Shown here in pieces: positions 15,076 to 54,401 of a DNA stretch of 64,000 nt. The stretch lies in sequence record NC_070981.1. One strand, written 5' to 3'. Numbering within the stretch: the first letter of the stretch is position 1; each line of letters opens with the position of its first letter. A program made the translations under genes and the position numbers. The notes under the pieces are model-generated. The model saw nothing but the letters and a program-made list of their open reading frames with translations. It had not been told where the DNA came from and made no database searches. Source of the DNA: Escherichia phage EK010.

Positions 15076-15084
15076 AAATGTATA
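15076..15084 (+). promoter_or_regulatory. promoter-like motif AAATGTATA (one mismatch to TAATGTATA)
   Basis: Intergenic, 37 nt upstream of ATG 15122. Confidence 0.35.
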
Positions 15085-15121
15085 TACAGTATAAGAATAT
15101 TGTATGAAACAGGAGAGAGTT

Positions 15122-15451
15122 ATGTTAGATTTGAGTAAAGTGGCCCCGCCATCTGAAGAGATTAGCAAAGCTAAAGTTATGCAGCAGTTCTATCATCGGG
15201 ATATGCTTGGTCGTTATATCAAGAATCGTGATGTTGTTGCATGGTCTATTGGAAATCAAGGTTATCTTCTCAAAGTGTTGCAAGTTACTGGCTCAACAGC
15301 CAAGCGAGTCAAAGTCTATGACCCTGAAATGGGGCGTTCTAAATCAGTAGACCCTCAGAATTGCATTGTTATCACACAACAGGTCATGGATAACATTGCT
15401 CGTAATGTAGCTAATTCAACTAACTTAGAAGGGGATGCACCTAATGCATAA
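15122..15451 (+). CDS. hypothetical protein (109 aa)
   Basis: Internal ATG with AGGAGAG RBS; preceded by AAATGTATA motif. Confidence 0.55.
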   Translation: MLDLSKVAPPSEEISKAKVMQQFYHRDMLGRYIKNRDVVAWSIGNQGYLLKVLQVTGSTAKRVKVYDPEMGRSKSVDPQNCIVITQQVMDNIARNVANSTNLEGDAPNA

Positions 15452-16010
15452 TAATGTCTTCGACTTACCTGAACTAACACGAGTGGGTTCTAGCAACCCA
15501 TTCTCTACTACTGACTCTTCTATTTCTCGTCTTGAGGGAATGAATAAACTGATTAGTGGTAACAGCTTAGAACACATCTTATGTGATGTGCAAGCTAACC
15601 TTGAACTTCTACACATCAAAGCAAAGAACTACCACTGGAACGTCTCTGGAGCTGGTTTCCAAGGTGTTCATGGTATGTTCGATGAACTAGAAGATTATGC
15701 TCGTGAGGCAGGCGACCGAATAGCAGAGCGTATGCGCTTCCATTGTGTTAAGGTGGATGCCACTGCCAGTAACTATTTAGGTCACGCTTGGTTCCGAGAA
15801 GGTAACGCTGATCTCGACATGGACGGTATGCTTTCCGACATGTGCATGACTCTTATGTGTATCATTGAGAAGATGGATGAGTTTGATTCAGACTTGTGCA
15901 CCTATCCAGTGGACCAGAGTATGCTTCAAGAAATTAATGAAGGTCTTGGCAAGTTCTGTTACTTCGTCAAGAGCAACATGTCCCACTCCAGTGGTGATGT
16001 GTCTTACTAA
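15435..16010 (+). CDS. Dps-like ferritin (DNA-binding ferroxidase fold)
   Basis: 'NYHWNVSGAGFQGVHGMFDELEDYAREAGDRIAERM' matches the Dps signature; start may be ATG 15444. Confidence 0.6.
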   Translation: MHLMHNNVFDLPELTRVGSSNPFSTTDSSISRLEGMNKLISGNSLEHILCDVQANLELLHIKAKNYHWNVSGAGFQGVHGMFDELEDYAREAGDRIAERMRFHCVKVDATASNYLGHAWFREGNADLDMDGMLSDMCMTLMCIIEKMDEFDSDLCTYPVDQSMLQEINEGLGKFCYFVKSNMSHSSGDVSY

Positions 16011-16019
16011 TCAAACCTC

Positions 16020-16060
16020 CGCCCTGTCTCGTTTGTTCAAGAGGTGGGGCGAACTTTTTT
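16020..16060 (+). terminator. rho-independent terminator candidate after Dps-like gene
   Basis: Imperfect ~11-bp stem (three G-U pairs) followed by TTTTTT. Confidence 0.4.
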
Positions 16061-16074
16061 ATAAGGATGTGAAT

Positions 16075-16254
16075 ATGTTTTCAGCAATCGTATGGTCTGT
16101 GTGGGCAATTCTTGTTGGCGGTATCGTTTATCTGGCTCAGAAGCAGATGCTTAAAGAGAATCCGAATGATGCTAAAGCCATTAAACATGGCAGCATTGCT
16201 CTGGTAGTCTTCTCTGTTGTTATTCCTTTCCTTCTTCACCTATGGACTGCATAA
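16075..16254 (+). CDS. small membrane protein (two predicted TM helices)
   Basis: Internal ATG with AAGGA RBS; hydrophobic stretches; follows a hairpin + T-run. Confidence 0.5.
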   Translation: MFSAIVWSVWAILVGGIVYLAQKQMLKENPNDAKAIKHGSIALVVFSVVIPFLLHLWTA

Positions 16255-16430
16255 TGAAATTAAACCTCCCTGAAGAGCTACAAGCACATGCTATTATTGT
16301 TAGTGGCTGTGTAATGGGTCTTGGTCAGACGAAGAAGATTGCCCATGATTTAGCAAAAGGGCAGTATAAATCTTTTATTGTTGTTCCTGCTACCCAACGT
16401 CATATCAATCTGTTTATTAACAAGGAATAG
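16254..16430 (+). CDS. hypothetical protein (58 aa)
   Basis: ATG overlapping upstream stop (TAATG). Confidence 0.4.
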   Translation: MKLNLPEELQAHAIIVSGCVMGLGQTKKIAHDLAKGQYKSFIVVPATQRHINLFINKE

Positions 16431-16431
16431 A

Positions 16432-16707
16432 ATGAGTAAAGTGATTAAGTTTTATAGTAACTCCTGTGCTCCGTGTGCAGCTATGGCTCCTGTGTTTAAG
16501 AAGGTTGTGGCTGACTATAACGTTGAAGTTGAAGAGGTAAACATCTCTGAAGGTGATGGTCGAGAGCGGGCCATTGAGTATGGTGTTCGCAGTATCCCAG
16601 CCTTCATAGTCCCTGATAATAACAGTGGTGCTCACTATAGTTTGTCAGGTATGCAAACTGAATCTAATCTCCGTGCATTTTTAGACACGGCTCTGAAAGG
16701 TAAGTAA
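16432..16707 (+). CDS. thioredoxin/glutaredoxin-like protein
   Basis: 'SCAPC' CxxC active-site-like motif and 'VRSIPAF'; AAGGA RBS. Confidence 0.5.
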   Translation: MSKVIKFYSNSCAPCAAMAPVFKKVVADYNVEVEEVNISEGDGRERAIEYGVRSIPAFIVPDNNSGAHYSLSGMQTESNLRAFLDTALKGK

Positions 16708-16708
16708 T

Positions 16709-16921
16709 ATGTCCGAATGTAAATGGGCTTTACAAGTAAATTGGGGTGGTAATAGAAGTGACATTGCCGCCACTATCTCGTTACAACGAACCCGTGAAGC
16801 TGCTCGTACACTTCGTCGTATGTTTATCAGTGGTGGTCAGAAACCATGTGATGTTAAAATCTACAAAGTTAAACATACCAACGGTGTTATGCAAATTGAC
16901 ACCAACGTAAATTATCGCTGA
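16709..16921 (+). CDS. small protein, paralog family member 3 of 4
   Basis: W..V.W ... TREAAR ... C-terminal NYR. Confidence 0.5.
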   Translation: MSECKWALQVNWGGNRSDIAATISLQRTREAARTLRRMFISGGQKPCDVKIYKVKHTNGVMQIDTNVNYR

Positions 16922-16928
16922 GGCAGAT

Positions 16929-17144
16929 ATGGAAAAGAAACCTTGGGTTACTTTTTGGGTAGTTAAGTGGTTTAATTTTGATAGTACAATCCCTAGCTTC
17001 TCAACATACTCCACACGGAAAGAGGCTCGTCGGTTTAAGCGAGCTTTAAAAATTGCTAATACCGGTGCTTCTAAGATTACAATCCAGAAAGGGATTGAAA
17101 CAGAAAGCGGAAGCAACATGGTTTATAAAAAGATTCACTATTAA
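16929..17144 (+). CDS. small protein, paralog family member 4 of 4
   Basis: W..V.W ... RKEAR ... C-terminal IHY. Confidence 0.5.
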   Translation: MEKKPWVTFWVVKWFNFDSTIPSFSTYSTRKEARRFKRALKIANTGASKITIQKGIETESGSNMVYKKIHY

Positions 17145-17151
17145 GGAAGAA

Positions 17152-17619
17152 ATGATACAAGACGACTTGGAATACAACCCTAAGACTGGAGACTTCTTCT
17201 GGAAGAACACAAAAGGTCGAAGGGTTAAAGGAAATCAAGCTGGGTATGTATCTTCTCTAGGTTATCGTTACATTGAGCATGAAGGGAAAAGCTACAGAGC
17301 TTGTCGCCTTGCTTGGTTCTTTGTTCATGGAAAGTTTCCTGAGTTTGAAATTGACCACATCGACCAGAACAAACTTAATGACTCAATTGATAACCTAAGA
17401 GATGTGAATCCATCTACTAACTGCCATAACAGAAGGCAGTACGATGTTGATAACAAGATAGGAAATCTTCCTAGAGGTGTGTATCTTCGTAAGACAGCTT
17501 CTGGTGATAAATATCGAGCCATTATCGGCGTCAAAGGTAAGAATATATACTTAGGGACTTTTGCTTCTTGTGAAGAGGCAGAAGAAGTTTACAACAAGGA
17601 GAAGTTGAAGTATGTCTGA
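17152..17619 (+). CDS. HNH homing endonuclease with AP2-like DNA-binding domain
   Basis: 'IDHIDQNKLNDSIDNLRDVNPSTNCHN' HNH motif plus AP2-like 'GV...GDKYRAIIGVKGKNIYLGTF'; AAGGAAG RBS; directly upstream of ThyX. Confidence 0.65.
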   Translation: MIQDDLEYNPKTGDFFWKNTKGRRVKGNQAGYVSSLGYRYIEHEGKSYRACRLAWFFVHGKFPEFEIDHIDQNKLNDSIDNLRDVNPSTNCHNRRQYDVDNKIGNLPRGVYLRKTASGDKYRAIIGVKGKNIYLGTFASCEEAEEVYNKEKLKYV

Positions 17620-18262
17620 TTTTTTAAAAGCAACACTGGTAGAGCACATGGGTTCCGACAAATCTGTGGTCAATGCAGCAAGGGTTTCCTTTGGTGTGAC
17701 ACGAGATGGTGATCTGAACGAACGTGACGAGCGGTTGATTAAATTCTTAGCTCGGGAACGTCATGTGACTCCTTTTCGACACCCTCAAATCACCTTTCGG
17801 TGTAAGGCTCCCATTGCAATTGCTAGACAACTCAATAAACACCAAGTTGGATTCTCATGGAACGAAATGTCCCGGCGGTATAAAGATGGAGCAGTTGAAC
17901 TCTTCATCCCTAAAGAGATTTTTGAAAGACCTTCGGACCTCCATGCAGGTGCGGGGAATCTCCTTACCACAGGAGCACAAAACTCTGCACTAGTTCTGAT
18001 TAATCGGGCATACGAAACAGCTCTTGAGTCGTATGATGAATTGATTAAGTTTATCGCTCCAGAGCAAGCTCGATTTGTTCTACCTCAAGGTATGATCACG
18101 GAGTGGGTGTGGACAGGTTCTTTATATGGCTGGTCAGAGTTATGTCGTCAGCGACTGTCCGACCATGCTCAGTATGAAGTACGAGTGTTCGCATCAACGG
18201 TCGATGAAGAGCTTCGTAAACTTTTCCCAATCTCATGGGATGCACTACGTGAAGCCCACTAA
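17612..18262 (+). CDS. thyX: flavin-dependent thymidylate synthase (ThyX family)
   Basis: 'LVEHMGSD...AARVSF', 'KAPIAIARQ', 'NEMSRRY', 'SDHAQYEVR' match ThyX conserved blocks. Confidence 0.65.
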   Translation: MSDFLKATLVEHMGSDKSVVNAARVSFGVTRDGDLNERDERLIKFLARERHVTPFRHPQITFRCKAPIAIARQLNKHQVGFSWNEMSRRYKDGAVELFIPKEIFERPSDLHAGAGNLLTTGAQNSALVLINRAYETALESYDELIKFIAPEQARFVLPQGMITEWVWTGSLYGWSELCRQRLSDHAQYEVRVFASTVDEELRKLFPISWDALREAH

Positions 18263-18437
18263 AGTATGTAGCTTCTGTCAAAAGCAGAAGCTTCTTATCA
18301 ATTTCAAGCTGAACGAGGAAACAGGTTTGGGTCATGCTTTTTGTCATGATTGCAGGCACTACCTTGAACAGAAGCAACACATAAACTGGTTGCATTACTA
18401 CCATCCAACAACATTCAAATTTAAGGTTGTTAAATGA
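18240..18437 (+). CDS. small Cys-rich protein (C-x2-C ... C-x2-C)
   Basis: Internal ATG of track ORF; 'CSFC...CHDC'; overlaps ThyX 3' end. Confidence 0.35.
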   Translation: MHYVKPTKVCSFCQKQKLLINFKLNEETGLGHAFCHDCRHYLEQKQHINWLHYYHPTTFKFKVVK

Positions 18438-18637
18438 GAACATTGTGGACTCTTGACTGTCAAGATGATGAAGGAGAGCGTTGGACTTGGAAATATTTCC
18501 TAGATAAACCAACACCTGATAACCCTGCTTTAGATTTTACTTCATATGAAGATGCTAAGAAGTTAGTAAACGGAGAAAAGGTTTGGTCTCCGGATGATGA
18601 AGTTCAATACTTTTTAACAGAACGGAAATTTTCATAA
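18434..18637 (+). CDS. hypothetical protein (67 aa)
   Basis: ATG overlapping upstream stop. Confidence 0.45.
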   Translation: MRTLWTLDCQDDEGERWTWKYFLDKPTPDNPALDFTSYEDAKKLVNGEKVWSPDDEVQYFLTERKFS

Positions 18638-18957
18638 TGATTGACAGTAATACATTTAGGACTGGTAACGGAAACGAGATTAGTCCTGCTGAAGTGATTA
18701 AACGACACAGAACGCAGATGCTTATCCATTCCTATCTGTATTATTGGTTGGATGACCCAATCTGGTCTGATGACAAATGGCAACAAGTGGCTGATGACTT
18801 AACCACTTTGCAAGAGATGTATCCTGAGCCTATCGGATTCTTTGATTCAGAGTTCAATGGATGGAATGGCTCCACTGGTATGCATCTTCCTCATGACGAG
18901 CGTATAGCTTGTATGGCTACTGAAGTATACCGTTTACATAAGGACAAATCAATCTGA
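18637..18957 (+). CDS. small protein resembling the N-terminal Ia (NMN-binding) domain of NAD-dependent DNA ligase
   Basis: 'HSYLYYWLDDPIWSDDKW...LTTLQEMYPEP' aligns by eye to LigA '[21 protein letters not shown]...LETKHPEL'; no KxDG adenylation motif nearby. Confidence 0.4.
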   Translation: MIDSNTFRTGNGNEISPAEVIKRHRTQMLIHSYLYYWLDDPIWSDDKWQQVADDLTTLQEMYPEPIGFFDSEFNGWNGSTGMHLPHDERIACMATEVYRLHKDKSI

Positions 18958-19139
18958 AATGTTTTAAATGTGAATCAACTCTTCTCCATTTGGACTCGAA
19001 AGTAATACGGGAGCTTGCCAAAGGCTCCCCGACTAAAGGGAAGAATAAGAAGTTTGTCGAAATTAAGGTTATAGGTATCCATTGCTCAGAGTGTAAATCC
19101 TGTAGCTTCTTATATGAAGAACACGGAGGTAGGAAATGA
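18942..19139 (+). CDS. candidate zinc-ribbon protein with no canonical start codon
   Basis: 66-codon open frame filling the gap before phoH, ending in TGA that overlaps the phoH ATG; C-x2-C-x37-C-x2-C-x2-C; only ATC/CTG available as in-frame starts; -1 frame relative to upstream ORF. Confidence 0.3.
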   Translation, partial: GQINLKCFKCESTLLHLDSKVIRELAKGSPTKGKNKKFVEIKVIGIHCSECKSCSFLYEEHGGRK

Positions 19140-19873
19140 GTCGTAGAGAATCTCGGAAAGCATCACGGAGAGAATTACGTCGTGAAGCTCTCGTCACCAA
19201 GAAAGGAAAGCGGGAATTTGAAGAAGTAGTTCTTGCTAAGCCGGTAGTACCTCAGAACCAATTCCAGAGTGAGCTGCTTAATGCAATTAAAACCAAACAG
19301 GTTGTATTCACAGATGCTCCTGCTGGTTGTGGTAAGACCTTCGTAATCACTTCTACAGTGATTGATGCTCTGAAGAGTGGGAAGATTGAGAAGATTATCC
19401 TAAGCCGACCTGCTGTTGGTATGGGTAATAGTCTTGGATTACTTCCCGGTGGACTTCGTGAGAAGTTTGAACCATACCTAATGCCAATCGTTGATGTTAT
19501 TACTCAGCGCTACGGTAAAGGTTTCTACGAATGTCAAGTAGGTAATGGTAATATTGAGTTCGTACCTCTGGAATATCTACGTGGTCGCTCGTTCAACGAT
19601 GCTATCGTGATTGTTGATGAGTTCCAGAACACTACTCCTGATGAAGCATATTCAATCATGACACGTCTTGGTGAAACCTCTCAGATGTTCTGCATGGGGG
19701 ACACTAACCAGCACGACATGCGTGGTGAGAGCGGTCTTGATTGGGCTACTGATTTCATCTACCGTCACCAGTTATTTGAATTTGCCGCTCTAGTAGATGG
19801 CGAATCAGATGATATTGTTCGTTCAGGTTTCTGTAAAGCTATTGTTAAAGCAATGGAATCTGAAAAATCATAA
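19136..19873 (+). CDS. phoH: PhoH-like ATPase
   Basis: Walker A 'APAGCGKTF', Walker B 'IVDEFQN'; GGAGG RBS. Confidence 0.7.
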   Translation: MSRRESRKASRRELRREALVTKKGKREFEEVVLAKPVVPQNQFQSELLNAIKTKQVVFTDAPAGCGKTFVITSTVIDALKSGKIEKIILSRPAVGMGNSLGLLPGGLREKFEPYLMPIVDVITQRYGKGFYECQVGNGNIEFVPLEYLRGRSFNDAIVIVDEFQNTTPDEAYSIMTRLGETSQMFCMGDTNQHDMRGESGLDWATDFIYRHQLFEFAALVDGESDDIVRSGFCKAIVKAMESEKS

Positions 19874-19876
19874 ACA

Positions 19877-19885
19877 TAATGTATA
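19877..19885 (+). promoter_or_regulatory. promoter-like motif TAATGTATA
   Basis: Intergenic, 35 nt upstream of ATG 19921. Confidence 0.45.
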
Positions 19886-19920
19886 CTCCTTAGTGTACAC
19901 TGATATATTAAGGAGTTATG

Positions 19921-20241
19921 ATGACCGATAAGGCGAAACGTGATTATGCACAAGAACGAAGAACTGCAATCGCAAGGGGTGAAACCGGCGTTGGTAGCAA
20001 GAGCGGAGATGCTCAGCGCCACCGTGCACGTCGCATCGTTGAAAAGCGCGATGGAAAAGCTGCTGTCCGAGGTAAAGATGTTGGACATAAACGATCAATC
20101 AAGTCGGGAGGTTCTAATGCGTCAAGTAACTTACGTGTTGAATCAGTCTCTCGAAATCGCTCGAACGGCGGCAAAAGTGGAGATCGTGCTGGAAAATCAG
20201 CAGGAGGAGTCAAATCGAGAAAAGGCGCTCTAAGTCAATGA
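19921..20241 (+). CDS. basic Arg/Lys/Gly/Ser-rich protein (106 aa); region also open in a second + frame
   Basis: AAGGAG RBS 5 nt before ATG 19921; TAATGTATA motif 35 nt upstream; alternative ORF 19940-20233 in another frame. Confidence 0.45.
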   Translation: MTDKAKRDYAQERRTAIARGETGVGSKSGDAQRHRARRIVEKRDGKAAVRGKDVGHKRSIKSGGSNASSNLRVESVSRNRSNGGKSGDRAGKSAGGVKSRKGALSQ

Positions 20242-20732: not shown

Positions 20733-20735
20733 TAT

Positions 20736-20768
20736 AAGGCTACCCATTTCGGGTGGCCTTTTCTTTTA
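20736..20768 (+). terminator. rho-independent terminator
   Basis: AAGGCTACCC-ATTTC-GGGTGGCCTT stem-loop then T-rich run, right after HNH gene stop. Confidence 0.6.
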
Positions 20769-20788
20769 TGTAACCTAAGGTAATAAAT

Positions 20789-21040: not shown

Positions 21041-21041
21041 T

Positions 21042-21299: not shown

Positions 21300-21302
21300 G
21301 TT

Positions 21303-25845: not shown

Positions 25846-26458
25846 AGTTTATTTTGCAGGTGATGGTCACCTAGGCCATCGTAACATCTGTAACTTTAGG
25901 AAGAAGTTTAGTAGTATTGAAGAACATGATAAAGCTATCTTAGCAGCGTTTGATCATGTTACTAAACGCGATAAAACTTTCTTTACAGGTGACTGGGTGT
26001 TTGAGAAATATGCACTTGATATTATCGCTGAAGTAAAGGGAGAGAAACATCTTGTCTTAGGGAACCATGACAGATTAGAACTTCTCCCTGATATGATGAA
26101 AGTCTTTAGACATATCAGCGGTGATTATAAGTACAAAGAATTTTGGGTAACTCATATTCCTATCCACTCTGATGAAATGAGAGGAAAGTATAATATCTAT
26201 GCTCATACTCATAATTCTACTATCAGAGATTGGAGATACTTCTGTACTTCTATGGAACAAATTGATTACAGAGCTGTGTCTCTGCAAGAGATTAGAAAAG
26301 AACTGGAAAGTAGGAAAGAGTGGGTAGCTTCTTTATTACAAAAAGATCATCCAATTACCAGCGAAGTACAAGAGATGTTAAGTAAACAAGCTGAATCTAA
26401 CTTACCTTTTCAGAGAACAGTAGAACAAACTAGCTTTAAAGGTCTTTTAGAATGGTAG
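25838..26458 (+). CDS. metallophosphoesterase (calcineurin-like phosphatase)
   Basis: 'GDGHLGH', 'GNHD', 'HTHN' metal-ligand motifs. Confidence 0.6.
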   Translation: MAEVYFAGDGHLGHRNICNFRKKFSSIEEHDKAILAAFDHVTKRDKTFFTGDWVFEKYALDIIAEVKGEKHLVLGNHDRLELLPDMMKVFRHISGDYKYKEFWVTHIPIHSDEMRGKYNIYAHTHNSTIRDWRYFCTSMEQIDYRAVSLQEIRKELESRKEWVASLLQKDHPITSEVQEMLSKQAESNLPFQRTVEQTSFKGLLEW

Positions 26459-26494
26459 AAGTTATTGTTTTAAGTTAAGTTTTCTTTTGATTTT

Positions 26495-26560
26495 AATAGA
26501 GAATCAAAGTCCTAGGAGTCCTCAACCTAAATCAAGGATTTCCTTAATTCTCTATTTTTA
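26495..26560 (+). terminator. long inverted repeat with T-run (possible terminator or operator)
   Basis: AATAGAGAAT (26495-26504) and ATTCTCTATT (26547-26556) 42 nt apart, followed by TTTTTA. Confidence 0.3.
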
Positions 26561-26652
26561 TCTCGCAGGTGTCTCCTGCCCTTCGGTACTTGCAAGGGTT
26601 ACGATGATTGCCCAATATACAAGCCTGCAATAGCTTTACTAGCTATACCATA

Positions 26653-26661
26653 TATACATTA
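26653..26661 (-). promoter_or_regulatory. promoter-like motif TAATGTATA in reverse orientation
   Basis: Same 9-mer on the opposite strand in the same intergenic region, pointing leftwards into non-coding DNA. Confidence 0.25.
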
Positions 26662-26723
26662 CTACTTACTGTTATCTACTACCAAAAAGGTTATAGTATA
26701 ATAGAACCTTATCTGTATAAGTG

Positions 26724-26732
26724 TAATGTATA
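26724..26732 (+). promoter_or_regulatory. promoter-like motif TAATGTATA
   Basis: Intergenic, 59 nt upstream of SSB-like gene; TATAAT-like hexamer at 26697-26702 nearby. Confidence 0.4.
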
Positions 26733-26791
26733 TAGTATACAAACCGCTCAAAGAGAGCAACAATCTTAAATCTATATAAGGAAATATTAAT

Positions 26792-27532
26792 ATGTCTATG
26801 ATCCCTGAACTGTCTGTATCCCGTAAATCCAACTACGATGTAATCCCTGATGGTGAGTACGAAGCACGTATTGTTCGTGTTGTAGGTTTGGGTGTTCACA
26901 ATCGTGACCCTTGGATTGACCCTAAAACCAAAGCAGTTACTCCTAAGAACCCAGCTTTCCGTATGGACTTAGCTTTTGAGCTGATTGGCGTAGATGCAAC
27001 AGGGACTGATAATGAAGGCAAACCTCTGGACCCTCGCCCTGCTTGCCAGTTTAAATCTTTCGATGTAAATCCACGAGCTAAGAACTCTGGTATTCTGAAT
27101 CTGATTAAAATGATCGACCCAAGTGTTCAAGCACTGAAAGGTGATTTGGGTTGGTTTAAAGATATGCTGTTAGGTCAGCCTGTTAACATTCTGGTTAATT
27201 CCTATGTAAACAAAGCTGGTGAGAAGAAAAACTCTATTAAGAGTATCACTCCAATTCCGACCAAATATCGTGATGCTGTAGGTGCTCCTCGTAGTGAGTT
27301 GATCTTCTTCGAACCGTATGCTGAGACTGATGCTAACTTAGCTGCTTATCAAGCAATCTTCCCATTCCAACGTAACCTCTTGACTCAAGCTAACGATGCT
27401 AAGAACATTCCTCTGGCTGGTCGTGAAGTTACCAAAGCTTCTGACACTGAACAGAAGGACGCAACTCCGAGTATCCCTACTATTAATGAAGAGCCGCAGT
27501 CTACCTTTGAAGAGGACGACTCTCCTTTCTGA
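26792..27532 (+). CDS. single-stranded DNA-binding protein-like
   Basis: Acidic C-terminal tail ending 'EEDDSPF' (compare bacterial SSB 'DDDIPF'); follows a promoter-rich intergenic region. Confidence 0.5.
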   Translation: MSMIPELSVSRKSNYDVIPDGEYEARIVRVVGLGVHNRDPWIDPKTKAVTPKNPAFRMDLAFELIGVDATGTDNEGKPLDPRPACQFKSFDVNPRAKNSGILNLIKMIDPSVQALKGDLGWFKDMLLGQPVNILVNSYVNKAGEKKNSIKSITPIPTKYRDAVGAPRSELIFFEPYAETDANLAAYQAIFPFQRNLLTQANDAKNIPLAGREVTKASDTEQKDATPSIPTINEEPQSTFEEDDSPF

Positions 27533-27555: not shown

Positions 27556-27578
27556 AGCCACCTTCGGGTGGCTTTTTT
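27556..27578 (+). terminator. rho-independent terminator (UUCG tetraloop)
   Basis: AGCCACC-TTCG-GGTGGCT followed by TTTTTT, after SSB-like gene. Confidence 0.7.
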
Positions 27579-28415: not shown

Positions 28416-28629
28416 TTTATCAGCTTGTTCAACGAGCGACAACAGCAGGCAATCAATGCCCTTACCAACAAACCTAAAAGCTGAATGTAGAGTTGACCTA
28501 CCTCTTTTAGAGAGTGCTCAAGGGAAGGCACTAGCCACTACGTTGGAGTGGTATCAGGACCAGTACACAGAATGTGCTGCTAATCACAATGGATTGTTAG
28601 AAGCTCTGAAAGAGCGTGGAATAGAATAA
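28363..28629 (+). CDS. lipoprotein (candidate o-spanin or exclusion lipoprotein), GTG start
   Basis: GTG 28363 with AAGGAG RBS 6 nt upstream; signal peptide 'MHIKKKLLSCTGILLAFSLSAC' with L-S-A-C lipobox. Confidence 0.45.
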   Translation: MHIKKKLLSCTGILLAFSLSACSTSDNSRQSMPLPTNLKAECRVDLPLLESAQGKALATTLEWYQDQYTECAANHNGLLEALKERGIE

Positions 28630-28967
28630 TGGAAGTCCTTAATTTCTACAAAGAGGGGTTGAAGATTCCAGAAGGCGCTATTTACATAGGAAGATATAGT
28701 GCCAAGCATGGTCTACCACAATCTAAGTATCACAACCCAATAAAGCTCCAAGAGGGTGAGCCAAGAGGTTCTACTCTGGATAAGTATAGGAAATATTTAT
28801 GGGGTGAGATAAAAGCTGGCAGAATAACTGTGGAAGAGCTTGCAAATCTGTATGGAACAAACCTTGTGTGTTATTGTAAGCCCAAACCTTGTCATGGGGA
28901 TATCCTTATGGCTGCTATAAAATGGGCAAAAGAAGAAATGGATAATGCTATAACTAAGGAAAGATGA
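28629..28967 (+). CDS. hypothetical protein with '[13 protein letters not shown]' motif
   Basis: ATG overlapping upstream stop. Confidence 0.5.
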
Positions 28968-29617
28968 TGGCGAAGAAGACAACACCTACAAGATATCGAA
29001 TTCATGGAATCCCTATTAAGTATATCTCAAACTATGAAGAGTTTTACAGAGTGAACTGGAAAGTGGTTCACAAGTTCTTCATGTATGATATCAGGGATTA
29101 TCATGAAGCAGAAGATGTGGCACAAGAAGTGCTCTTGAATGCTTGGAGATTTGTCTTCGCTAAGCAGGATGAGAGAGTCCTAGAGGATGAGAAAGACCAA
29201 GAGCATATGACTTATCGAGTCAAGAACATTATCTGGTCGATTCGTTCTAATCGTCAGACAGTTGGAGACCGACGTATCTACTCTATTCCAGAGGCTGATA
29301 TGTTTAGACCTCCTGAGATGAACTCATGGGAAAGTCCTTTAGAAATTGCGATGGATAAGCATGATTCTACTGGAGACCCATTCTTGGAATCTAGAATCTT
29401 TTTCTTCTTCCAAGACCTGAGTGACATTATGGAAAACCGTAAGATGGCAAGCATGTTCTCAATGCTCTTTCTCGGCATCCCACATGATCACATCCAGCAG
29501 GAGCTGGGAATTTCACACGGAACCTTCTATCGCCGTTATGCAGAGAATCGTGATCTGTATGAAGCGGTAGTAGAGAAGCACTTTGATAAAGAAGATCTTC
29601 AAGGGATGATTCAATAA
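28964..29617 (+). CDS. sigma-70-family (ECF-like) sigma factor
   Basis: Region 2-like '[16 protein letters not shown]' and region 4-like HTH '[21 protein letters not shown]'. Confidence 0.6.
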
Positions 29618-35300: not shown

Positions 35301-36822
35301 AAGCATCTTGGATAGGGTTAAAACCTTCAGGCATACCTTTTAGTTTCTTTAATCCACCAATGGCCTTCTTCATTTCTGGAGAAACATTTTCAGAGAGCTT
35401 CTGCAACTGAGTAGCTTTATCAATGAAGTTGTTTAGGTCTTCACCATCACGAGCTTTGAAACGATTAGCTTCACTGTAAAAAGTTTTATAAGCATCAATA
35501 AAATCACGATCAGCTTGAGTACGGTTTTTAATGTCAATAGCACTACCAGTAAAATCACCACTTGCTCTCAGAGCTACTAACTCTCGGTCTAGATTGTCTA
35601 GAACATCAGTAAGAGCTTTGGTGTTATCTTTAGTGTAGTCAGCCATTGCATCTTTCATTGCCACAGCTTGTTTCTGGTTGTACTCATTGTCAGCAAAAGC
35701 TTTACCTTGAGTCTTCTTAGGAGAAGCTAAAGGATTAAGACCGGGAACGTTAGAACTATCTTTCTGAACCGTAGCAGCCTTCTCTGCACGACTTTGATCT
35801 GTATTTAATATACGTTGAACAGCAGGAGAGTCCATAGCAACTGCATCTGTGATTCGGAAACCATTTTCATCCAGAAGGTTTAAAGCAGAGGCAGCATTAG
35901 CATTCTCAGCTTTAGCATAGGCTTCACGAAGTTCATCAGCGTTAGCAGCTTTACGAATAGCCTCATCTTCAGCAGCAATGTCAGTCTTAACATGCTCAGG
36001 AGTACGATCAAACACTTGAGGACTAGGACGACTTATTAACCCATGAACCCCACCAATCGCCCCACCATAAGCGGCACCGAGTGCACCTTCTTCAATAGCC
36101 CCTTCTAAGACATTAGCTAGAGTAGTGTCATCCCCATATTTGTTCTGAGCTTCAGCAGCACCAACAATAGCACCACCCTTAGCACCAGCAACTGCGTTAG
36201 AGGCTACGCTTTGTCCTACACGACCAAGAGTAGTAGAAGCTGTACCAGTCATGCCCGGAAGTATCTTCTGAGCAGCGTAGTTAGCACCACCAACAAGAGC
36301 AGCATCTAAGACTGACTTATCTTCATCTTCTTTAGGAGTTTGATCAGCATAAGCACGACCTGTTTCACGAGCTGCAATCACAGCAGCAGCAACAGCAGGG
36401 TTTGCAACTGTCAAACCAATATCAGCAGCAACACCAGCATACTGACCAGCTGTTTTACCAAAACCATCTTCTATCTTGGATAAGCGTTCTTCCAGCAATT
36501 GCTTAGAGTTCTCTTGAATGCGCTTACCGTAGCTTGTTTCCGAACCAGTTAGATTTTCACCAATCTCTACCAGCCCACCTAAACCTTTAGCAGCACTAGC
36601 TGCAATGTTAGCACCACCTGATTGAAGAGCGTTAGACACACCTTGAGCAAACTCCCCAATAGCACCTCGTTCTTCTTGTTGTGGTTGCTCTTGTGGTTGA
36701 GTCTCAGGAATAGTGCCCCCTGCTGCCTTGTATTGTTCTCTCATTTGAGCCTGTTGCTCTGGAGAGGCATTCAGATACGCAGGAGCTTTGGAAGCTTCTT
36801 CCCACGATTTTAAATTAGCCAT
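32377..36822 (-). CDS. large coiled-coil virion protein (1481 aa; candidate internal core/ejection protein)
   Basis: Ala/Glu/Lys/Arg-rich coiled-coil sequence; last gene of late operon; AAGGAG RBS; TAATGTATA 36 nt upstream. Confidence 0.5.
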   Translation of the reverse strand: MANLKSWEEASKAPAYLNASPEQQAQMREQYKAAGGTIPETQPQEQPQQEERGAIGEFAQGVSNALQSGGANIAASAAKGLGGLVEIGENLTGSETSYGKRIQENSKQLLEERLSKIEDGFGKTAGQYAGVAADIGLTVANPAVAAAVIAARETGRAYADQTPKEDEDKSVLDAALVGGANYAAQKILPGMTGTASTTLGRVGQSVASNAVAGAKGGAIVGAAEAQNKYGDDTTLANVLEGAIEEGALGAAYGGAIGGVHGLISRPSPQVFDRTPEHVKTDIAAEDEAIRKAANADELREAYAKAENANAASALNLLDENGFRITDAVAMDSPAVQRILNTDQSRAEKAATVQKDSSNVPGLNPLASPKKTQGKAFADNEYNQKQAVAMKDAMADYTKDNTKALTDVLDNLDRELVALRASGDFTGSAIDIKNRTQADRDFIDAYKTFYSEANRFKARDGEDLNNFIDKATQLQKLSENVSPEMKKAIGGLKKLKGMPEGFNPIQDAFTLNNTAKFMSNQDRGWTSLTDDGFREAPAPVLVKNPLGAAKYVLNRFTSDRARAQREKQQSANSEAIRSLARADLEVQRARTQAEEARAKMEEEPTTEDIKFRTQNDAPSEPVREEPSATTVTEEIPSSPAPTETPLTARDLVAQRRALQQAELRRQEAEAAQAQESATPEPEPQQEALTARELVAQRRAVAEAKKRQEAEEAERAKEAPEKTVEEPQEKPEPLPARAPKAPEKALEPVKPSLGVERLASMSTAARQATKDRADRFARSLYSAAAKAKATAENFLSYKGDPKELMRRIRQEDQANNTQRHEEMARNQLASQQGIASAKSQHVRSSFADWVKERGLPSDIATKALRAEEKGLGGNVTSLDSLKRRAERLYQKQRDDEFDRLYREALEENKAFDKKDAPKLVDQKKELQDEIGTLLDAEPLRPAQKDAMRRIMEDFVESKFKSSEKAGRVEALEVGQMKDVWDGFINTYNREVNMFNKANKNSQYEAAAKHLQARQERLETLRNRAKARNDAKAAMEAEKQSLEAIAAQKSEMEKMFKELPESVREAQEGRTLKQLAAHHDKNSPVPPERFRSIIERIHNAESDYLDRKRRLTEAEEDAREAKWNRMYEQAEEMNRRFDIDSRVKRDKALKEAQERENDLMAVQRQRDDIHKRLVNTLEEKGVSREDAEAYAGSYMDNRYALLEKPMTPVEHQNARARIESDVEKFVKKYETATPIEREIAKATGDADGKASDLDAETAKAIEDARKVDSDFKKLLDEEKEMEKIRSALPEDERSQANSDILESIKKQEDDFANKAEKAFIEGKDLQELASVAEVLDRVHGADKAGNNRRFVRALQTAAENKKRYGDNPVAWFSADDYSAIAKLGAASAGGNKSRALEKIFGSTAEQAKGKLLGRDDVAKIRRVIEANPNAKIPSYKTTTRQEYLQFLEKYNDEGELKVKRGSLSDKLERSKRQAKLRVRVRAKE

Positions 36823-36858
36823 AACGTCTCCTTATAAATAAAAATGTCCTACCTCCTA

Positions 36859-36867
36859 TATACATTA
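36859..36867 (-). promoter_or_regulatory. promoter-like motif TAATGTATA
   Basis: Intergenic, 36 nt upstream of ATG 36822 of the 1481-aa gene. Confidence 0.45.
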
Positions 36868-36892
36868 TAAGAGATAGGACTTAGGTCTTAGA

Positions 36893-47336: not shown

Positions 47337-47348
47337 AAGGCACCTCCA

Positions 47349-48092: not shown

Positions 48093-48161
48093 TTTCTTCT
48101 CCTTTTCGTTTTCCTTTTGGATATAGTAGTTTCATTACTTATTCACCAGTTTCACTCCTAA

Positions 48162-48179
48162 AAGCCCCCGAAGGGGCTT
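48162..48179 (-). terminator. terminator-like hairpin (UUCG tetraloop) after tail fibre 2
   Basis: minus-strand AAGCCCC-UUCG-GGGGCUU then UU. Confidence 0.45.
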
Positions 48180-48182
48180 ATC

Positions 48183-50339: not shown

Positions 50340-50356
50340 ATTTAATTCTCCTTAAA

Positions 50357-50372
50357 GCTCCCCGAAGGGAGC
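50357..50372 (-). terminator. hairpin (UUCG tetraloop) between the two tail fibre genes
   Basis: minus-strand GCUCCC-UUCG-GGGAGC followed by UUU and the AAGGAG RBS of fibre 2. Confidence 0.4.
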
Positions 50373-50381
50373 ATTGTTAGT

Positions 50382-53300
50382 TTATTTAGCAGCCAACTTA
50401 GCTTCTAACTCTTCCACTTTCTCAGACAAGCACTTAATTGCTGCAAGAGCATCAAGTAAAAGAGGGTTAGTGTCGAGAGTCATAACTCCACTTTTTTCCG
50501 CACTATGAACATACTGAGGGTCAACCTGTTCTGCCTGTTGTGCAATAACCCCTCGACGTGGAGATTTCTTCTCATCACTCTTATATGTAAAGTTCTTAAA
50601 CTCAAGAGCTTTAATATTACTTAGAGCGACATTTAAATCCAAATCATCACCAATATCTTTAACATTCGCGTCAGAGGTTCCAGCATTCTGAAGAGTTGTC
50701 CACGGAAGGTTGGTTTTGAGTTCTTTTGGATTATTGTTTATGGTGTTAGTTCTAACATAAGCCGAACCATTCAAGCTTATCCAAAACTGGCAGATTCTGT
50801 TTACGGCATAAGAAGTTTGGAAACCTCCCCCATTTGCAGCTGCCCACGGCGAATTACCATCCGAGTCTGTTATGAACTGGTTATAGTTAGAATCAGGTAA
50901 CACTGTACCACCCTGAACACCAACACCATAATCATCTTTAACTAAAACACGACCTTTGGGAGTCTCTATATTCCCCGCTTCAGTGAAATCAAAAGTTGTA
51001 CCTTTCGAAGAAGTTTTGTTATAAACTCCAATTCTTGCAGAGTATGAACCACCAACAGTGCCTTGCATTTTGAACTCAGCTGACCCTTCTGGTTCTGTGC
51101 CAACCCTATAATCGGATACCAAGTTGCCACCTGTAATGGTTGTACCGTCCGACGGTCTTATGTCATCACTATTAATAACAGACCAAGAAGTATTAGCTGC
51201 AATGAAAGCACCCTTAGCACGAATTACCCATACGCCTATGAAGTTGTTAGGTCTCAGTTCTGATACAGTCCTGCCATAAATAGGGTTGGATTTAGATGCA
51301 TCAAAATCAATATTTACATAAGACCCATTTATGGCATTTGTTCCGCCGATAGGAGTTAAAGTGGTAGTCTGTGGTGAGAAGGAACCCCTACCACGAACAG
51401 ATCCACCAGAACCCCAACCAGACAGCATAGTGACCTCGGGTGTTCCTGTTATATTAGGAGCTCCTGATGAAAAAACAGCTCCATCATTACCGCTGTTACC
51501 GCTATCACCTCTCCCGAATAACCCTGCTATGGAATTAGCCTGAACCCCGTTTCGGTCAGGGACACGGAAAGTTGTAGAACCGTCACCCAAAGAATATTTA
51601 CCTCTTTTTTCCGGAGAAGCTAACCAATCGTCATCACTGATTGGGGTTAATAGCTGGGCGTAAGCCCAAAGCTCTGGATAATCAGCACGGGTAAGGAGTT
51701 GACCATCTGATGTTATATCACTTGAGTGGATAAAAGCACGACTGTCTACTAGTCGGAAGTCGCCAATATTGAAGTTGGAGATACCATTCATTGTAGCCCC
51801 ACCACCGCCACCACCTTGGTTTTTCAACTGACGATAGGTAACAGCATCATAATCACCAACAGCATCAGGAATAGTAACCGGTTGCTGGAAAGTAGCTTTC
51901 TGTGTAAACGTTTTAAGATCAGAGTTTACACCGTCAGTAGTTACAGCAGCAGCACCTATCGCAGCAGGTGTTGGCTTATTGTTCTCTGCATAGAACAAAT
52001 AGTCCCCAGAGGGTGTTGACAGATAAGGTACACTAGAACTAGCAATAACTGTACGGGCTAAGTGATCACCAAACACAGATGAATCTGAACCACTTCTAGA
52101 AACCATGTTGACTTGACTGCTGTCATCTTTAATACGTCTTAAAGAGATTCCATTGTTCAGAACCAAGTTACCATCCATGATACCACCAGCTTTGGCAATA
52201 GCTCCAATTGTTGCAGGGGTGAGATTTACATTACCAGTGTTGTCATTAGGGGATAACCCATTAACTGTTACAATATAAGGCTTCTGAGCTTGCACTTGGC
52301 CTTTGTATTCAGTATCTGTAGCCGAGTTAGGAGATCGAATTGTTTCACCACCAGTCCAGTCTGGGAGTCGGATGTTAACATAGTTAGTAGAATCTGCATC
52401 AGTAATACCGTCAGCTTGCTTACCCCAAGAGAAGTATTGCTTAGCACCTGCTTGCCATTCTGTTTCACTGACAACAGGGAGCTGACCACTGAGTAAAGAT
52501 GGACCCAAATCTGCTGCCGATTCTTTAGAAACAAGACGACCATCAGCAGGAAGAATCCCGGGATATGAAATATTCTTAGCTGGGTCATAGGGGAACATTA
52601 CCATTTCACCAAGATACAGAGAAGGGTTTCCTGTAGGAATGGTGATATCAATGTTACCAGTGGAGTCTGGGATTCTAGAGTTAACAGTAACAACGCGAGG
52701 TTCTGTTTTCAAAGGCTCTAAGATTTTATCAGAAGCCACGGTGTAGAATGAATACTTAGTATCTTCCCAAACTAGAATTGTCTCACCAGCCTTTCGGTTA
52801 ATCGCATCAGCATCAGCATCAGCTTTAGTATTATAGGCTTTGATGAACCTGTCAACTTTCTTGTCGGTTTCTTCTTTACTGTAAGAAGCTACGTTTTCTA
52901 CGTTATCTAGACCTACCGTGCTTTTGTCAATGGTTAAAGAGACGCTACCACTTTCAGCAGGTCCACCATTAACACTGATATCCCTAACAGATGGGATTAG
53001 GTTTGCGATGTTTTCCAAAGTGGTTTTATGGACTGTATTATCAGTTTGGTCTACGTAAAAACCCAAATCCCCAGCAACAGGAACACCAGTATCAACAGTG
53101 TTTAAGTCTTTAACCGATCCATCTTTACCCGGAAGACCCTCAGGAATACCAAGGCTGATCTTACCAGTGGTAGGGTCAAACTCACCAGTAGCAGGCTGTC
53201 CCGGACTTAAAGTTGTTACCTCAACAGTCATCCCTAACAAGATATCCAGCTGTTTGTCAACCTCTACCAGTTTTTGATTAATTAGTGCAATAGCGTTATT

Positions 53301-53603
53301 AGCATTAGCAACGGCAGCATTAGACTGAGCAATAAGTTGCATCAAACGAGCGTCTTGATCTTTGAAGTCTTGCTTAAGAGCTTCAATATCCTCACGTAAC
53401 AGAATCCCTTGTTGATAAAGTTTTTCCACTTCTGCAATCAGATCATCAACCGTACCAAATTTAGCCTCTGCCAATAGTGACCAATATTTAGCATCAGCAG
53501 CATATTCAGCTGCTTGCTTATAGGCTCCAATAGAGCCTTCTGTTGCACCAAACTGACCAACGTTGTTAGGATTAGTTGGCTCTTGGTTGTTATAAACGAT
53601 CAT
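50382..53603 (-). CDS. tail fibre protein 1 (1073 aa) with collar region and C-terminal chaperone-like domain
   Basis: Same conserved blocks; divergent central region. Confidence 0.6.
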   Translation of the reverse strand: MIVYNNQEPTNPNNVGQFGATEGSIGAYKQAAEYAADAKYWSLLAEAKFGTVDDLIAEVEKLYQQGILLREDIEALKQDFKDQDARLMQLIAQSNAAVANANNAIALINQKLVEVDKQLDILLGMTVEVTTLSPGQPATGEFDPTTGKISLGIPEGLPGKDGSVKDLNTVDTGVPVAGDLGFYVDQTDNTVHKTTLENIANLIPSVRDISVNGGPAESGSVSLTIDKSTVGLDNVENVASYSKEETDKKVDRFIKAYNTKADADADAINRKAGETILVWEDTKYSFYTVASDKILEPLKTEPRVVTVNSRIPDSTGNIDITIPTGNPSLYLGEMVMFPYDPAKNISYPGILPADGRLVSKESAADLGPSLLSGQLPVVSETEWQAGAKQYFSWGKQADGITDADSTNYVNIRLPDWTGGETIRSPNSATDTEYKGQVQAQKPYIVTVNGLSPNDNTGNVNLTPATIGAIAKAGGIMDGNLVLNNGISLRRIKDDSSQVNMVSRSGSDSSVFGDHLARTVIASSSVPYLSTPSGDYLFYAENNKPTPAAIGAAAVTTDGVNSDLKTFTQKATFQQPVTIPDAVGDYDAVTYRQLKNQGGGGGGATMNGISNFNIGDFRLVDSRAFIHSSDITSDGQLLTRADYPELWAYAQLLTPISDDDWLASPEKRGKYSLGDGSTTFRVPDRNGVQANSIAGLFGRGDSGNSGNDGAVFSSGAPNITGTPEVTMLSGWGSGGSVRGRGSFSPQTTTLTPIGGTNAINGSYVNIDFDASKSNPIYGRTVSELRPNNFIGVWVIRAKGAFIAANTSWSVINSDDIRPSDGTTITGGNLVSDYRVGTEPEGSAEFKMQGTVGGSYSARIGVYNKTSSKGTTFDFTEAGNIETPKGRVLVKDDYGVGVQGGTVLPDSNYNQFITDSDGNSPWAAANGGGFQTSYAVNRICQFWISLNGSAYVRTNTINNNPKELKTNLPWTTLQNAGTSDANVKDIGDDLDLNVALSNIKALEFKNFTYKSDEKKSPRRGVIAQQAEQVDPQYVHSAEKSGVMTLDTNPLLLDALAAIKCLSEKVEELEAKLAAK

Positions 53604-53612
53604 AATCTCTCC

Positions 53613-54359
53613 TTAACTGTAATGTTTAATTCCGTATAATTCACGAGAGCTGTGAAGACGGTCGATAGTTCGAGGGATAACTAGAGGAGAACCTGAATAC
53701 TCAGCTTTCTTACTCTGTTCAACTACTTCATCTAAGATGGCTTTCCCTAAAGCCGACCACTTCTGAACCCCATTATCATCTTGAACAAACAAGCTTGCAT
53801 GACGTAATGTGAAATATAGAAGAAGCTCTGGAGCTATTGTTAAAATTGCACTTGTATCAGAATCCTCATGAAACTCCGGAGGGTCTGCATAATAGCTAAG
53901 AATTACCGAATTCTCCGCTGGAATAAGAGGGCTTCCATCATCAGGGTAGACCGGAGTATCGGCGTTGATGGCTGGGTAGAACAGGAACCGACTTCCCAAC
54001 CTAGTAAAACTCACTTCTCCCTGATTCCAGTTAGTTGGGTTTACTGAGTTATTTCTTTTCAGCCAATCTAACTCTTCTGGAGAAGTTACTCGGAACATAT
54101 GTCCATTACTTGCTCTCATCATCCACTGAGCTTCTAAGTAGTCTGGTGGAATAAAAGCCACACCATCTTTAATATCTAAATATACTTCTTTTTCCAGAGG
54201 AGGAATTCGTAAGTTACGATAGATTTCTTTCTCTGCAAAGTTAATAAAGTTTGGAATCTGATTAACAAATTCATCATCATCCCTGTCAGCCCAGAGGGAC
54301 ACAGCTTTCTTGAGCCATCCGTAGGTATTGATGGGATATTGAACGTCAGGCATTGCCAT
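53613..54359 (-). CDS. virion protein (248 aa; candidate head-tail connector/adaptor)
   Basis: Position between capsid module and fibres; TAATGTATT motif 33 nt upstream. Confidence 0.4.
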   Translation of the reverse strand: MAMPDVQYPINTYGWLKKAVSLWADRDDDEFVNQIPNFINFAEKEIYRNLRIPPLEKEVYLDIKDGVAFIPPDYLEAQWMMRASNGHMFRVTSPEELDWLKRNNSVNPTNWNQGEVSFTRLGSRFLFYPAINADTPVYPDDGSPLIPAENSVILSYYADPPEFHEDSDTSAILTIAPELLLYFTLRHASLFVQDDNGVQKWSALGKAILDEVVEQSKKAEYSGSPLVIPRTIDRLHSSRELYGIKHYS

Positions 54360-54392
54360 AACTTGTCCTCCTAGTTGTGTATAGACAAAGAG

Positions 54393-54401
54393 AATACATT
54401 A
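54393..54401 (-). promoter_or_regulatory. promoter-like motif TAATGTATT (one mismatch)
   Basis: 33 nt upstream of ATG 54359. Confidence 0.3.

Follow-up and report, generated by a model that had tools for sequence, protein, structure and literature searches.

The 64,000-nt stretch of DNA from Escherichia phage EK010 that was analysed in this work (NC_070981.1, hereafter the window) contains a nine-nucleotide motif, TAATGTATA, that recurs ahead of genes, together with an open reading frame that resembles a sigma factor. The question that this locus raises is what the motif does and which RNA polymerase reads it. The motif and the sigma gene are the middle and late promoter system that has already been published for phiEco32-like coliphages. 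We consider it highly probable (about 0.93) that the nine letters serve as the -10 element in middle and late promoters that the host core polymerase reads together with the phage sigma factor whose gene lies at 28967-29617(+). Escherichia phage E20-1, a phiEco32-like podophage under Gordonclarkvirinae, matches the window at 99.9% identity across 63.8 kb (100% across the 8 kb that were tested). The suggestion in an earlier note on this DNA that the phage may be phiEco32-like is thus borne out. The window phage shares about 80% nucleotide identity with phiEco32 and is nearer to SU7 and E20-1. The window phage and phiEco32 have in common the sigma factor and the gp79 that works with it, the tAATGTAtA element, the positions of the six promoters along with the variant letters of each, and a layout in which the middle and late arms of the genome converge.

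The 2012 work of Pavlova et al. is said to be among the studies of the gp36/gp79 middle and late transcription system of phiEco32. The system has also been treated by Lavysh et al. in 2022 (PMC8948821) and Xu et al. in 2025 (PMC12276001, PDB 9m7y). Six phiEco32 promoters are read by the gp36 holoenzyme, with the consensus tAATGTAtA and starts 6-8 nt downstream (PMC8948821, PMC4281155), and the same two reports agree with what the earlier note says of a promoter element for the phiEco32 sigma factor. The cryo-EM open complex exhibits gp36 contacts to -14A, -13A, -12T, and -11G of AATGTA (PMC12276001). The promoter explanation in this work is based on sequence identity, orthologous positions, conservation, and statistics. 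Sigma dependence, DNA contacts, and start sites come from the phiEco32 experiments, and we infer that they hold for this phage as well.

The sigma open reading frame matches phiEco32 gp36 (PDB 9m7y_F) with an E-value of 1.1e-127 across residues 2-216 and PHROG 1740 'RNA polymerase sigma factor' with an E-value of 1e-41. It is identical to gp36 at 187 of 214 aligned residues, or 87% (tblastn against NC_010324.1). The N-terminal, DNA-reading domain is identical at 102 of 103 residues. The C-terminal domain is identical at just 57 of 77 residues, so its -35 preferences could differ. Residues E79, H80, Y83, R84, W90, S91, S94, and N95, which read the -10 element in phiEco32, and Y186 and R187, which read the -35 region (PMC12276001), are identical in the window sigma, and so are the acidic clamp-helix-binding residues of gp36. 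Setting these contact residues beside the motifs of distant relatives gave no information on specificity, because the residues are almost invariant there while L023 and L024 have no motif at the gene-40 position. The earlier note had described 28964-29617 as a sigma factor with signatures of regions 2 and 4. The sigma identity stands by homology to gp36, whereas the Pfam Sigma70_r2 match (E 1.3e-3, 18.9 bits) lies under the 24-bit cut-off and the Pfam search of this open reading frame returned no match to region 4. Since region 2 is weak and region 4 is absent in Pfam, the assignment rests on the identity to gp36, for which the solved structure exhibits a C-terminal domain with a sigma-4-like fold (PMC12276001). 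The start of the open reading frame is most likely 28967, not 28964. By analogy with phiEco32, its product very probably directs the host core RNA polymerase to the phage promoters.

The E20-1 record gives the sigma gene only as 'hypothetical protein', and the SU7 record likewise leaves it unannotated; the SU7 genome paper reported the sigma factor as not found. Correct annotation of this gene in E20-1-like records is one practical value of the assignment. The gene upstream of the sigma gene is a DUF4326 gene in the window, whereas in phiEco32 it is the macro-domain gene 37, which has been predicted to contain a sigma-70 promoter for the sigma gene. A homologue of gp79 is encoded at 8628-8870(+) in the early/middle arm of the window (PDB 9m7y_G / 9m7z gp79, E 5e-37, 79 residues). 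In phiEco32, gp79 inhibits the sigma-70 holoenzyme and activates the gp36 holoenzyme (PMC12276001).

Exactly four copies of TAATGTATA are present in the window, at 19877(+), 26653(-), 26724(+), and 36859(-), and all of them are intergenic, within the 5.3% of the window that is non-coding by the E20-1 gene map. Dinucleotide-preserving shuffles gave a mean of 0.41 copies and none of the 100 shuffles attained four, which is a tenfold enrichment. These results uphold the claims of four copies in 64 kb, always intergenic, and of about 5% non-coding DNA. Three copies had been placed 35-59 nt upstream of a start codon in the right orientation and two single-mismatch sites 37 and 33 nt upstream. The former is nearly so, since the exact copies that point towards a gene lie 32, 59, and 36 nt from its start codon, and both of the latter were found as given, at 15076(+) with AAATGTATA and at 54393(-) with TAATGTATT. 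The notion of a fixed distance upstream of genes does not hold, as the gap varies from 11 to 59 nt with the site at 62380(-) included. Counting variants with at most one mismatch gives no enrichment by itself genome-wide, with 17.95 sites expected and 21 present in the window, a count that 25 of 100 shuffles reach. Because this class is not enriched, the variant sites at 15076 and 54393 rest on orthology. The complete E20-1 genome has no exact motif copy in its early region.

The matrix-based motif search that the earlier note had proposed was carried out with a position weight matrix built solely from the six phiEco32 promoters and scanned over the window. The top six matches are all intergenic sites, and the match at 54391(-) ranked ninth. 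Seven sites in the window have the AATGTA core within a tAATGTAtA match, all in non-coding DNA. Each of the seven has a purine as its predicted +1. An A at -34 is present at 7/7 sites in the window and 7/7 in phiEco32, in agreement with the cryo-EM contact of Y186 (PMC12276001).

Five of the six sites in the earlier set are positional orthologues of the phiEco32 promoters P68, P58, P40, P26, and P13. The orthologue of the middle promoter P68 lies at 15052-15091(+), with a -35 box TTGGTAGTAGATA at 15052-15064, the -10 element at 15076-15084, a predicted +1 A at 15091, a gene start at 15122, and matrix rank 5. Its sequence and position are as in phiEco32 P68, the promoter used in the cryo-EM open complex (PMC12276001). 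The orthologue of the middle promoter P58 lies at 19877-19892(+), with TAATGTATA, a predicted +1 at 19892, and matrix rank 1; it is kept in most relatives, and the gene behind it starts at 19921 in the E20-1 annotation, with another in-frame ATG at 19918. The orthologue of the middle promoter P40 lies at 26724-26739(+), with TAATGTATA, a predicted +1 at 26739, a gene start at 26792, and matrix rank 3.

The late promoters are on the minus strand. The P13 orthologue (54386-54424) has TAAGACC at 54424-54418, TAATGTATT at 54401-54393, a predicted +1 G at 54386, and the start of the adaptor gene at 54359, with a terminator hairpin directly upstream. Its TAAGACC box and -10 element are kept, whereas the 16-nt spacer differs from those of phiEco32, SU7, KBNP1711, and Paul; the -10 letters TAATGTATT in the window are unlike those of phiEco32. 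The P6 orthologue (62373-62388), which was not in the earlier set, has TAATGTAGA at 62380-62388, a predicted +1 at 62373, and matrix rank 6. A terminator hairpin lies directly upstream of it and its context is identical in phiEco32, SU7, and Paul. The motif ends 11 nt ahead of the ATG at 62368, and the start is predicted about 5 nt before the ATG, so the Shine-Dalgarno sequence would fall outside the transcript, a point against the promoter reading. The sites have the variant letters of phiEco32 in aAATGTATA at P68 and TAATGTAgA at P6, and P6 is given as TAATGTAgA in the published six-promoter lists (PMC8948821, PMC4281155). The P26 orthologue (36852-36890) has TAAGACC at -38 to -32 (36890-36884), TAATGTATA at 36867-36859, a predicted +1 G at 36852, a gene start at 36822, and matrix rank 2. 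The gp36 holoenzyme transcribes P26 in vitro (PMC12276001).

The P26 orthologue also bears on a reading in which the motif is kept for a non-promoter role, for example within RNA hairpins or terminators or because a protein binds it as a palindrome. A 15-bp hairpin that has covarying pairs and a U-run holds the motif in its loop and top at 36846-36880, and the copies at 26653 and 26724 make a perfect 12-nt inverted repeat. However, no common structure surrounds the motif at the other five sites, AATGTA is read base-specifically by gp36 in the cryo-EM structure, and P26 is transcribed as described above (PMC12276001). There is only a slight chance that such a role explains the motif set, and the hairpin at 36846-36880 is most plausibly an additional terminator overlapping the promoter.

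Another reading, suggested in part by the SU10 genome paper, is that the host sigma-70 holoenzyme uses these sites, taking TATATA or TATACT for its -10 hexamer and, at P68, TTGGTA for its -35 hexamer. TATACT at 19882-19887 does resemble a sigma-70 -10 in its score, though the -35 that goes with it is poor, and the SU10 authors raised the idea that both holoenzymes may use the middle promoters. Yet only one of the seven sites meets the weak 9/12 sigma-70 threshold, sigma-70-like matches in the region are no commoner than in shuffles (50 vs 42.5), and the invariant letters are AATGTA and form no TATAAT hexamer. Published in vitro dependence on gp36 and the inhibition of sigma-70 transcription by gp79 (PMC12276001, PMC8948821) also argue against the host sigma factor, which is very improbable as the reader of these sites. 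The interpretation of the earlier note that the motif marks promoters for the phage sigma factor is supported by the gp36 orthology, the contact residues, and the promoter positions.

The phage-sigma promoters would operate as follows. The phage is predicted to make the gp36-type sigma factor and the gp79-type protein. By homology with the phiEco32 complex, gp79 would displace sigma-70 region 4 from the polymerase and stabilise the phage sigma at its C-terminal domain. A-14, A-13, T-12, and G-11 of AATGTA would be read by the N-terminal domain, with the DNA opened from -11, and the C-terminal domain would touch the -35 region, in which every site has an A at -34. Transcription is expected to start about 7 nt past the 9-mer. 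The three rightward sites (15076, 19877, and 26724), which precede DNA-metabolism genes, would serve as middle promoters, and the three leftward sites (36859, 54393, and 62380), which precede virion and packaging genes, as late promoters. The assignment would also be of practical value for the annotation of middle and late transcription units in a phage group that therapy studies make use of.

The late promoters of T4, TATAAATA, are read by gp55, which like gp36 is a small divergent phage sigma factor with a dominant AT-rich -10-type element. The T4 protein is without a region-4-like domain and requires gp33 and the sliding clamp. Unlike gp55, gp36 does possess a C-terminal domain of the sigma-4 type, which gp79 stabilises and which contacts -37 and -34. 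T4 AsiA/MotA resembles gp79 in that sigma-70 region 4 is displaced or remodelled by a protein of the phage, which redirects the polymerase, whereas the phage sigma replaces the host sigma in the phiEco32-type system and the host sigma is re-used by AsiA/MotA. Sigma appropriation by AsiA/MotA was compared with the phiEco32 system by the authors of the cryo-EM structure (PMC12276001). Salmonella phage 7-11 likewise uses a phage sigma (gp47) with the host core polymerase and has similar promoter positions in its genome (PMC8948821). However, its sigma is only about 15% identical, its consensus is different and clearly bipartite, with late promoters of the form GTAAtg-16-aCTA, and it is without a gp79 homologue, a middle class, or host shut-off (PMC8948821).

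The remaining exact copy, at 26653(-), has no co-oriented gene downstream. The divergent promoter-like site spans 26646-26685(-), with a -35 box TTGGTAGTAGATA at 26685-26673, TAATGTATA at 26661-26653, and a predicted +1 A at 26646. Its GGTAG -35 box and spacing equal those of P68. The same copy is present in phiEco32 at 36704(+), and it is absent from the six-promoter lists of PMC8948821 and PMC4281155; the 2012 primary paper may discuss it. Among 11 genomes, both boxes are invariant or nearly so and the 11-nt spacer varies freely, and the site is kept in the more distant relatives L025, L028, and L029. A covarying hairpin has its start right at the predicted +1, and its pairing is better on the minus strand. 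This strand preference comes from the alignment fold and G.U pairs only, as single-sequence folds of the intergenic spacer have similar z-scores on the two strands (-2.4 and -2.2).

A very highly conserved non-coding block at 26490-26586 lies downstream of the divergent site. The block of about 97 nt has 92-100% identity in 97/97 related phage records, compared with 71-85% for the neighbouring genes, and is the most conserved DNA of the neighbourhood. Rfam searches (the whole window at the gathering threshold and 26300-26900 permissively) gave chance-level matches only, ARAGORN identified no tRNA, and a terminator scan of the spacer at 26458-26792 identified no canonical terminator. The spacer alignment exhibits no conserved open reading frame, since indels of 1, 2, and 1 nt disrupt every frame. 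A search of 5,426 E. coli genomes gave no match to the block, which is therefore not copied from a host element. GC skew over the window changes sign solely around 32 kb, the point at which the two directions of transcription meet, and has no inflection near 26.6 kb, a pattern that speaks neither for nor against an origin. Neither the divergent promoter nor the block appears in the published promoter lists or genome annotations that were compared.

It is possible, though short of an even chance, that 26653(-) is a non-functional mirror of the gene-40 promoter, such as a palindrome by-product or a decoy. The missing co-oriented gene and its place outside the six published promoters fit this, as do its degeneration in L030 (TAATATATA) and L027 (TAATGAATA) and its absence from L026. 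A mere mirror sits less well with an own GGTAGTAGATA box at the exact P68 spacing, with a box and -10 that stay invariant while the spacer has changed at almost every position, and with the covarying hairpin that starts at the predicted +1 and pairs more strongly on the minus strand. We tentatively propose that 26653(-) works as a seventh gp36-type promoter, in one class with P68 (GGTAG at -37 to -33), which is conserved across the phiEco32 group and may fire away from gene 40. Its transcript might begin with the covarying 5' hairpin, continue into the conserved block, and act as a non-coding RNA of about 160-190 nt or as an origin-activating or priming transcript. If transcribed, this promoter and the block would give the group its first proposed non-coding RNA or origin-type element, and the divergent site would be a test case for the -35 contacts of the 2025 cryo-EM structure.

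The 9-mer TAATGTATA occurs exactly four times in the window, at the positions that had been stated in the earlier note; in shuffled sequences the mean count was 0.41 and four copies were never attained. All four exact copies and both one-mismatch sites named in that note are intergenic, where the intergenic share is 5.3% of the sequence as measured from the E20-1 gene map. The gaps to the start codons also agree: the exact copies in co-orientation lie at 32, 59, and 36 nt, and the variant sites lie at 37 and 33 nt. The "fixed distance" to genes is rather a short leader of 11-59 nt before the start codon. The one-mismatch class is not enriched in the window (21 found versus 18 expected), so other evidence has to carry the two variant sites. 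A weight matrix that was trained on the six phiEco32 promoters only was scanned over the window. The sites ranked 1-6 are 19877(+), 36857(-), 26724(+), 26651(-), 15076(+), and 62378(-), all of them intergenic; by chance, six of six would fall inside that 5.3% of the sequence with a probability of about 2e-8. The site at 54391(-) ranked ninth. The scan also adds a site that had been overlooked, TAATGTAGA at 62380-62388(-). Equal motif density inside coding sequence of the complete genome had been put forward as an argument against promoters; the early region of the complete E20-1 genome holds zero exact copies, which answers that argument.

It has been reported that one conserved element, tAATGTAtA, is common to the six phiEco32 promoters read by the gp36 holoenzyme and that transcription starts 6-8 bp downstream of it (Lavysh et al., 2022, PMC8948821, summarising primary work). 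Table S3 of PMC8948821 assigns P6 (TAATGTAgA), P13, and P26 to the late promoters and P40, P58, and P68 (aAATGTATA) to the middle promoters. The same six promoters are given with their sequences in the SU10 paper (PMC4281155). The structure of polymerase with gp36 and gp79 has been solved as an open complex on P68 (Xu et al., 2025, PMC12276001), with base-specific contacts at -14A, -13A, -12T, and -11G and C-terminal-domain contacts at -37G and -34A; P26 and P68 are activated by gp79 (PMC12276001). The phiEco32 promoter element named in the earlier note is right according to these papers. By position relative to phiEco32, the orthologues are P68 at 15076(+), P58 at 19877(+), P40 at 26724(+), P26 at 36859(-), P13 at 54393(-), and P6 at 62380(-). 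The first letter of P68 is A for T and the eighth letter of P6 is G in both phages. The finding is real and its interpretation is correct; it is known biology already, transferred here to a phage that nearly duplicates one in GenBank.

The GenBank phage is Escherichia phage E20-1 (OP293233.1; Gordonclarkvirinae/Kuravirus), to which, among named phages, SU7 and the Bas86/87 phages are most closely related. An 8-kb stretch of the window is 100% identical to it, and the window is the reverse complement of OP293233.1 across 63,772 nt (99.9% identity, 62 substitutions), with the final ~230 nt continuing at the other end of that record. DNA identity to phiEco32 is ~80%. The early and middle arm is oriented (+) to ~32.2 kb, and the late arm of virion and packaging proteins is oriented (-) from ~32.4 kb on. 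The 62 substitutions cluster at 59-63.5 kb. The terminase ORF at 60293-61846(-) is a single intact 517 aa frame in the window and is annotated as three fragments in OP293233.1, and at least three differences change GTG to ATG at window ORF starts (3077, 12088, and 27957).

The protein encoded at 28967-29617(+), judged from sequence comparison, is clearly the orthologue of phiEco32 gp36. It matches PDB 9m7y chain F (E 1e-127), gp36 (87% identity by tblastn), and PHROG 1740 "RNA polymerase sigma factor". The region 2 and region 4 signatures that had been claimed hold only in part at profile level: region 2 had a sub-threshold Pfam match, and region 4 had no Pfam match. The N-terminal domain, the reader of the -10 element, is identical to gp36 at 102 of 103 positions, and all reported DNA- and clamp-helix-contact residues (listed in PMC12276001) are unchanged. 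A homologue of gp79, the partner protein, lies at 8628-8870 (E 5e-37 to 9m7y_G). The sigma factor is labelled a hypothetical protein in the E20-1 record, and the SU7 genome paper reported that no sigma could be identified. In phiEco32 a macro-domain gene precedes sigma and contains a predicted sigma-70 promoter for sigma, whereas a DUF4326 gene and an HNH endonuclease (28629-28967) are found there in the window. A strong terminator lies 3' of gene 40, at 27556-27573(+).

With the fourth exact copy at 26653(-) included, A is found at -34 in seven of seven sites in the window and in seven of seven in phiEco32, which agrees with the Y186 cryo-EM contact. The -35 regions are of recognisable types. 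GGTAG at -37 to -33, inside TTGGTAGTAGATA, is shared by the P68 orthologue and 26653(-), and the gene-40 promoter carries it in the same register in genomes with an upstream insertion. TAAGACC at -38 to -32 marks both P26 and P13, which are late promoters; between phages, P13 retains this box and its -10 element, and its 16-nt spacer varies. All seven sites have a purine as the predicted +1. The promoters therefore look weakly bipartite, in better accord with the 2025 structure than the older notion of a "single element". We infer that the two -35 box types may underlie middle versus late timing.

The P26-type promoter lies inside a 15-bp hairpin at 36846-36880(-) whose loop contains the -10 letters AUGUA, and AUUUUUAUUUAU comes after it. 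Every pair is retained in 11 sequences, with variation at six pairs, and one is doubly compensated. Overlapping the promoter, this hairpin, which is absent from the SU10 terminator list, looks like an intrinsic terminator of late transcripts coming from upstream. A GC-rich hairpin and T-run directly precede the P13-type (54402-54450) and P6-type (62389-62425) promoters on the (-) strand, and thus each late unit opens with a terminator-promoter module. At the P6-type promoter (62366-62388(-)) the predicted start is only ~5 nt before the ATG and AGGAG lies upstream of the start. The first gene would have an almost leaderless transcript, and its protein aligns to its PHROG profile from residue 16 on only. 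At 19885-19916(+), the Shine-Dalgarno sequence UAAGGAGU is paired with ACUCCUUA, which comes right behind the P58-type promoter; this pairing shows no covariation. The gene may be translated only from sigma-dependent transcripts, because read-through RNA folds far more stably (-14.8 kcal/mol) than RNA from the predicted start at 19892 (-0.6 kcal/mol).

The site at 26653(-) faces the opposite way to the gene-40 promoter, 62 nt away, and has no co-oriented gene. Its equivalent in phiEco32 is at 36704(+). In 11 genomes of the group, its -10 element TAATGTATATA is conserved, as is its -35 box TGGTAGTAGAT (TGGTAGTATAT in two of them), and the 11 nt between these elements differ at nearly every position, as would be expected for a bipartite promoter under selection. 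GGTAGT and AATGTA are kept in this orientation, with spacing one nt shorter, in three more distant relatives (L025, L028, and L029; sigma identity 63-77%); L027 and L030 have a degenerate version of the site, and L026 has none. A 6-bp hairpin, AUAGCU/AGCUAU at 26630-26646(-), starts exactly at the predicted +1. Across eight distinct sequences it is 97.9% paired and two pairs are changed on both sides; a G.U pair in three sequences corresponds to a C.A mismatch on the opposite strand. The alignment fold favours the minus strand (-43.6 versus -30.6 kcal/mol), and single-sequence folding z-scores do not separate the strands. More distant relatives have another hairpin at this position.

About 60-155 nt downstream of this predicted start lies a ~97-nt block (26490-26586). 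All 97 phage records carrying sigma, and two metagenomic relatives, have it at 92-100% identity; identity in the neighbouring genes is 71-85%. Nearly every record leaves the block unannotated, and it yielded no Rfam match, tRNA, canonical terminator, conserved reading frame, or E. coli copy. Common variation is restricted to small indels of 1, 2, and 1 nt, and the internal hairpin GCAGG/CCTGC has a compensatory change in L028. The leading candidates for its role are an ncRNA starting at 26646, an origin-type element activated by transcription, and an extended bidirectional terminator under additional sequence constraints; GC skew gave no origin signal. The site at 26653(-) is missing from both six-promoter lists (PMC8948821; SU10 paper). 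This putative divergent seventh promoter with its conserved non-coding target is the sole lead beyond the literature consulted, and an earlier description in the primary 2012 work is possible.

Between the block and the 26653(-) site, genomes carry one or the other of two unrelated sequence cassettes, indicating mosaic exchange within the non-coding spacer. The cassette region is 26587-26640, with the same place occupied in L005, L007, L012, L014, and L030-L033, genomes that are otherwise collinear. The metagenomic relatives L023 (7480-7650) and L024 (7785-7950), with sigma identity of 53-56%, keep nearly all DNA-contact residues except for H80N and R84Q. AATGTA is missing upstream of their gene-40 homologue, and the two share another conserved spacer, in which ATGATGA occurs. 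In the relatives without the block, L025 (8950-9060), L029 (7700-7870), and L026 (8430-8560), the equivalent spacer has a very high AT content, and that of L025 carries repeated TTAAGTAAG-like units beside the putative divergent promoter.
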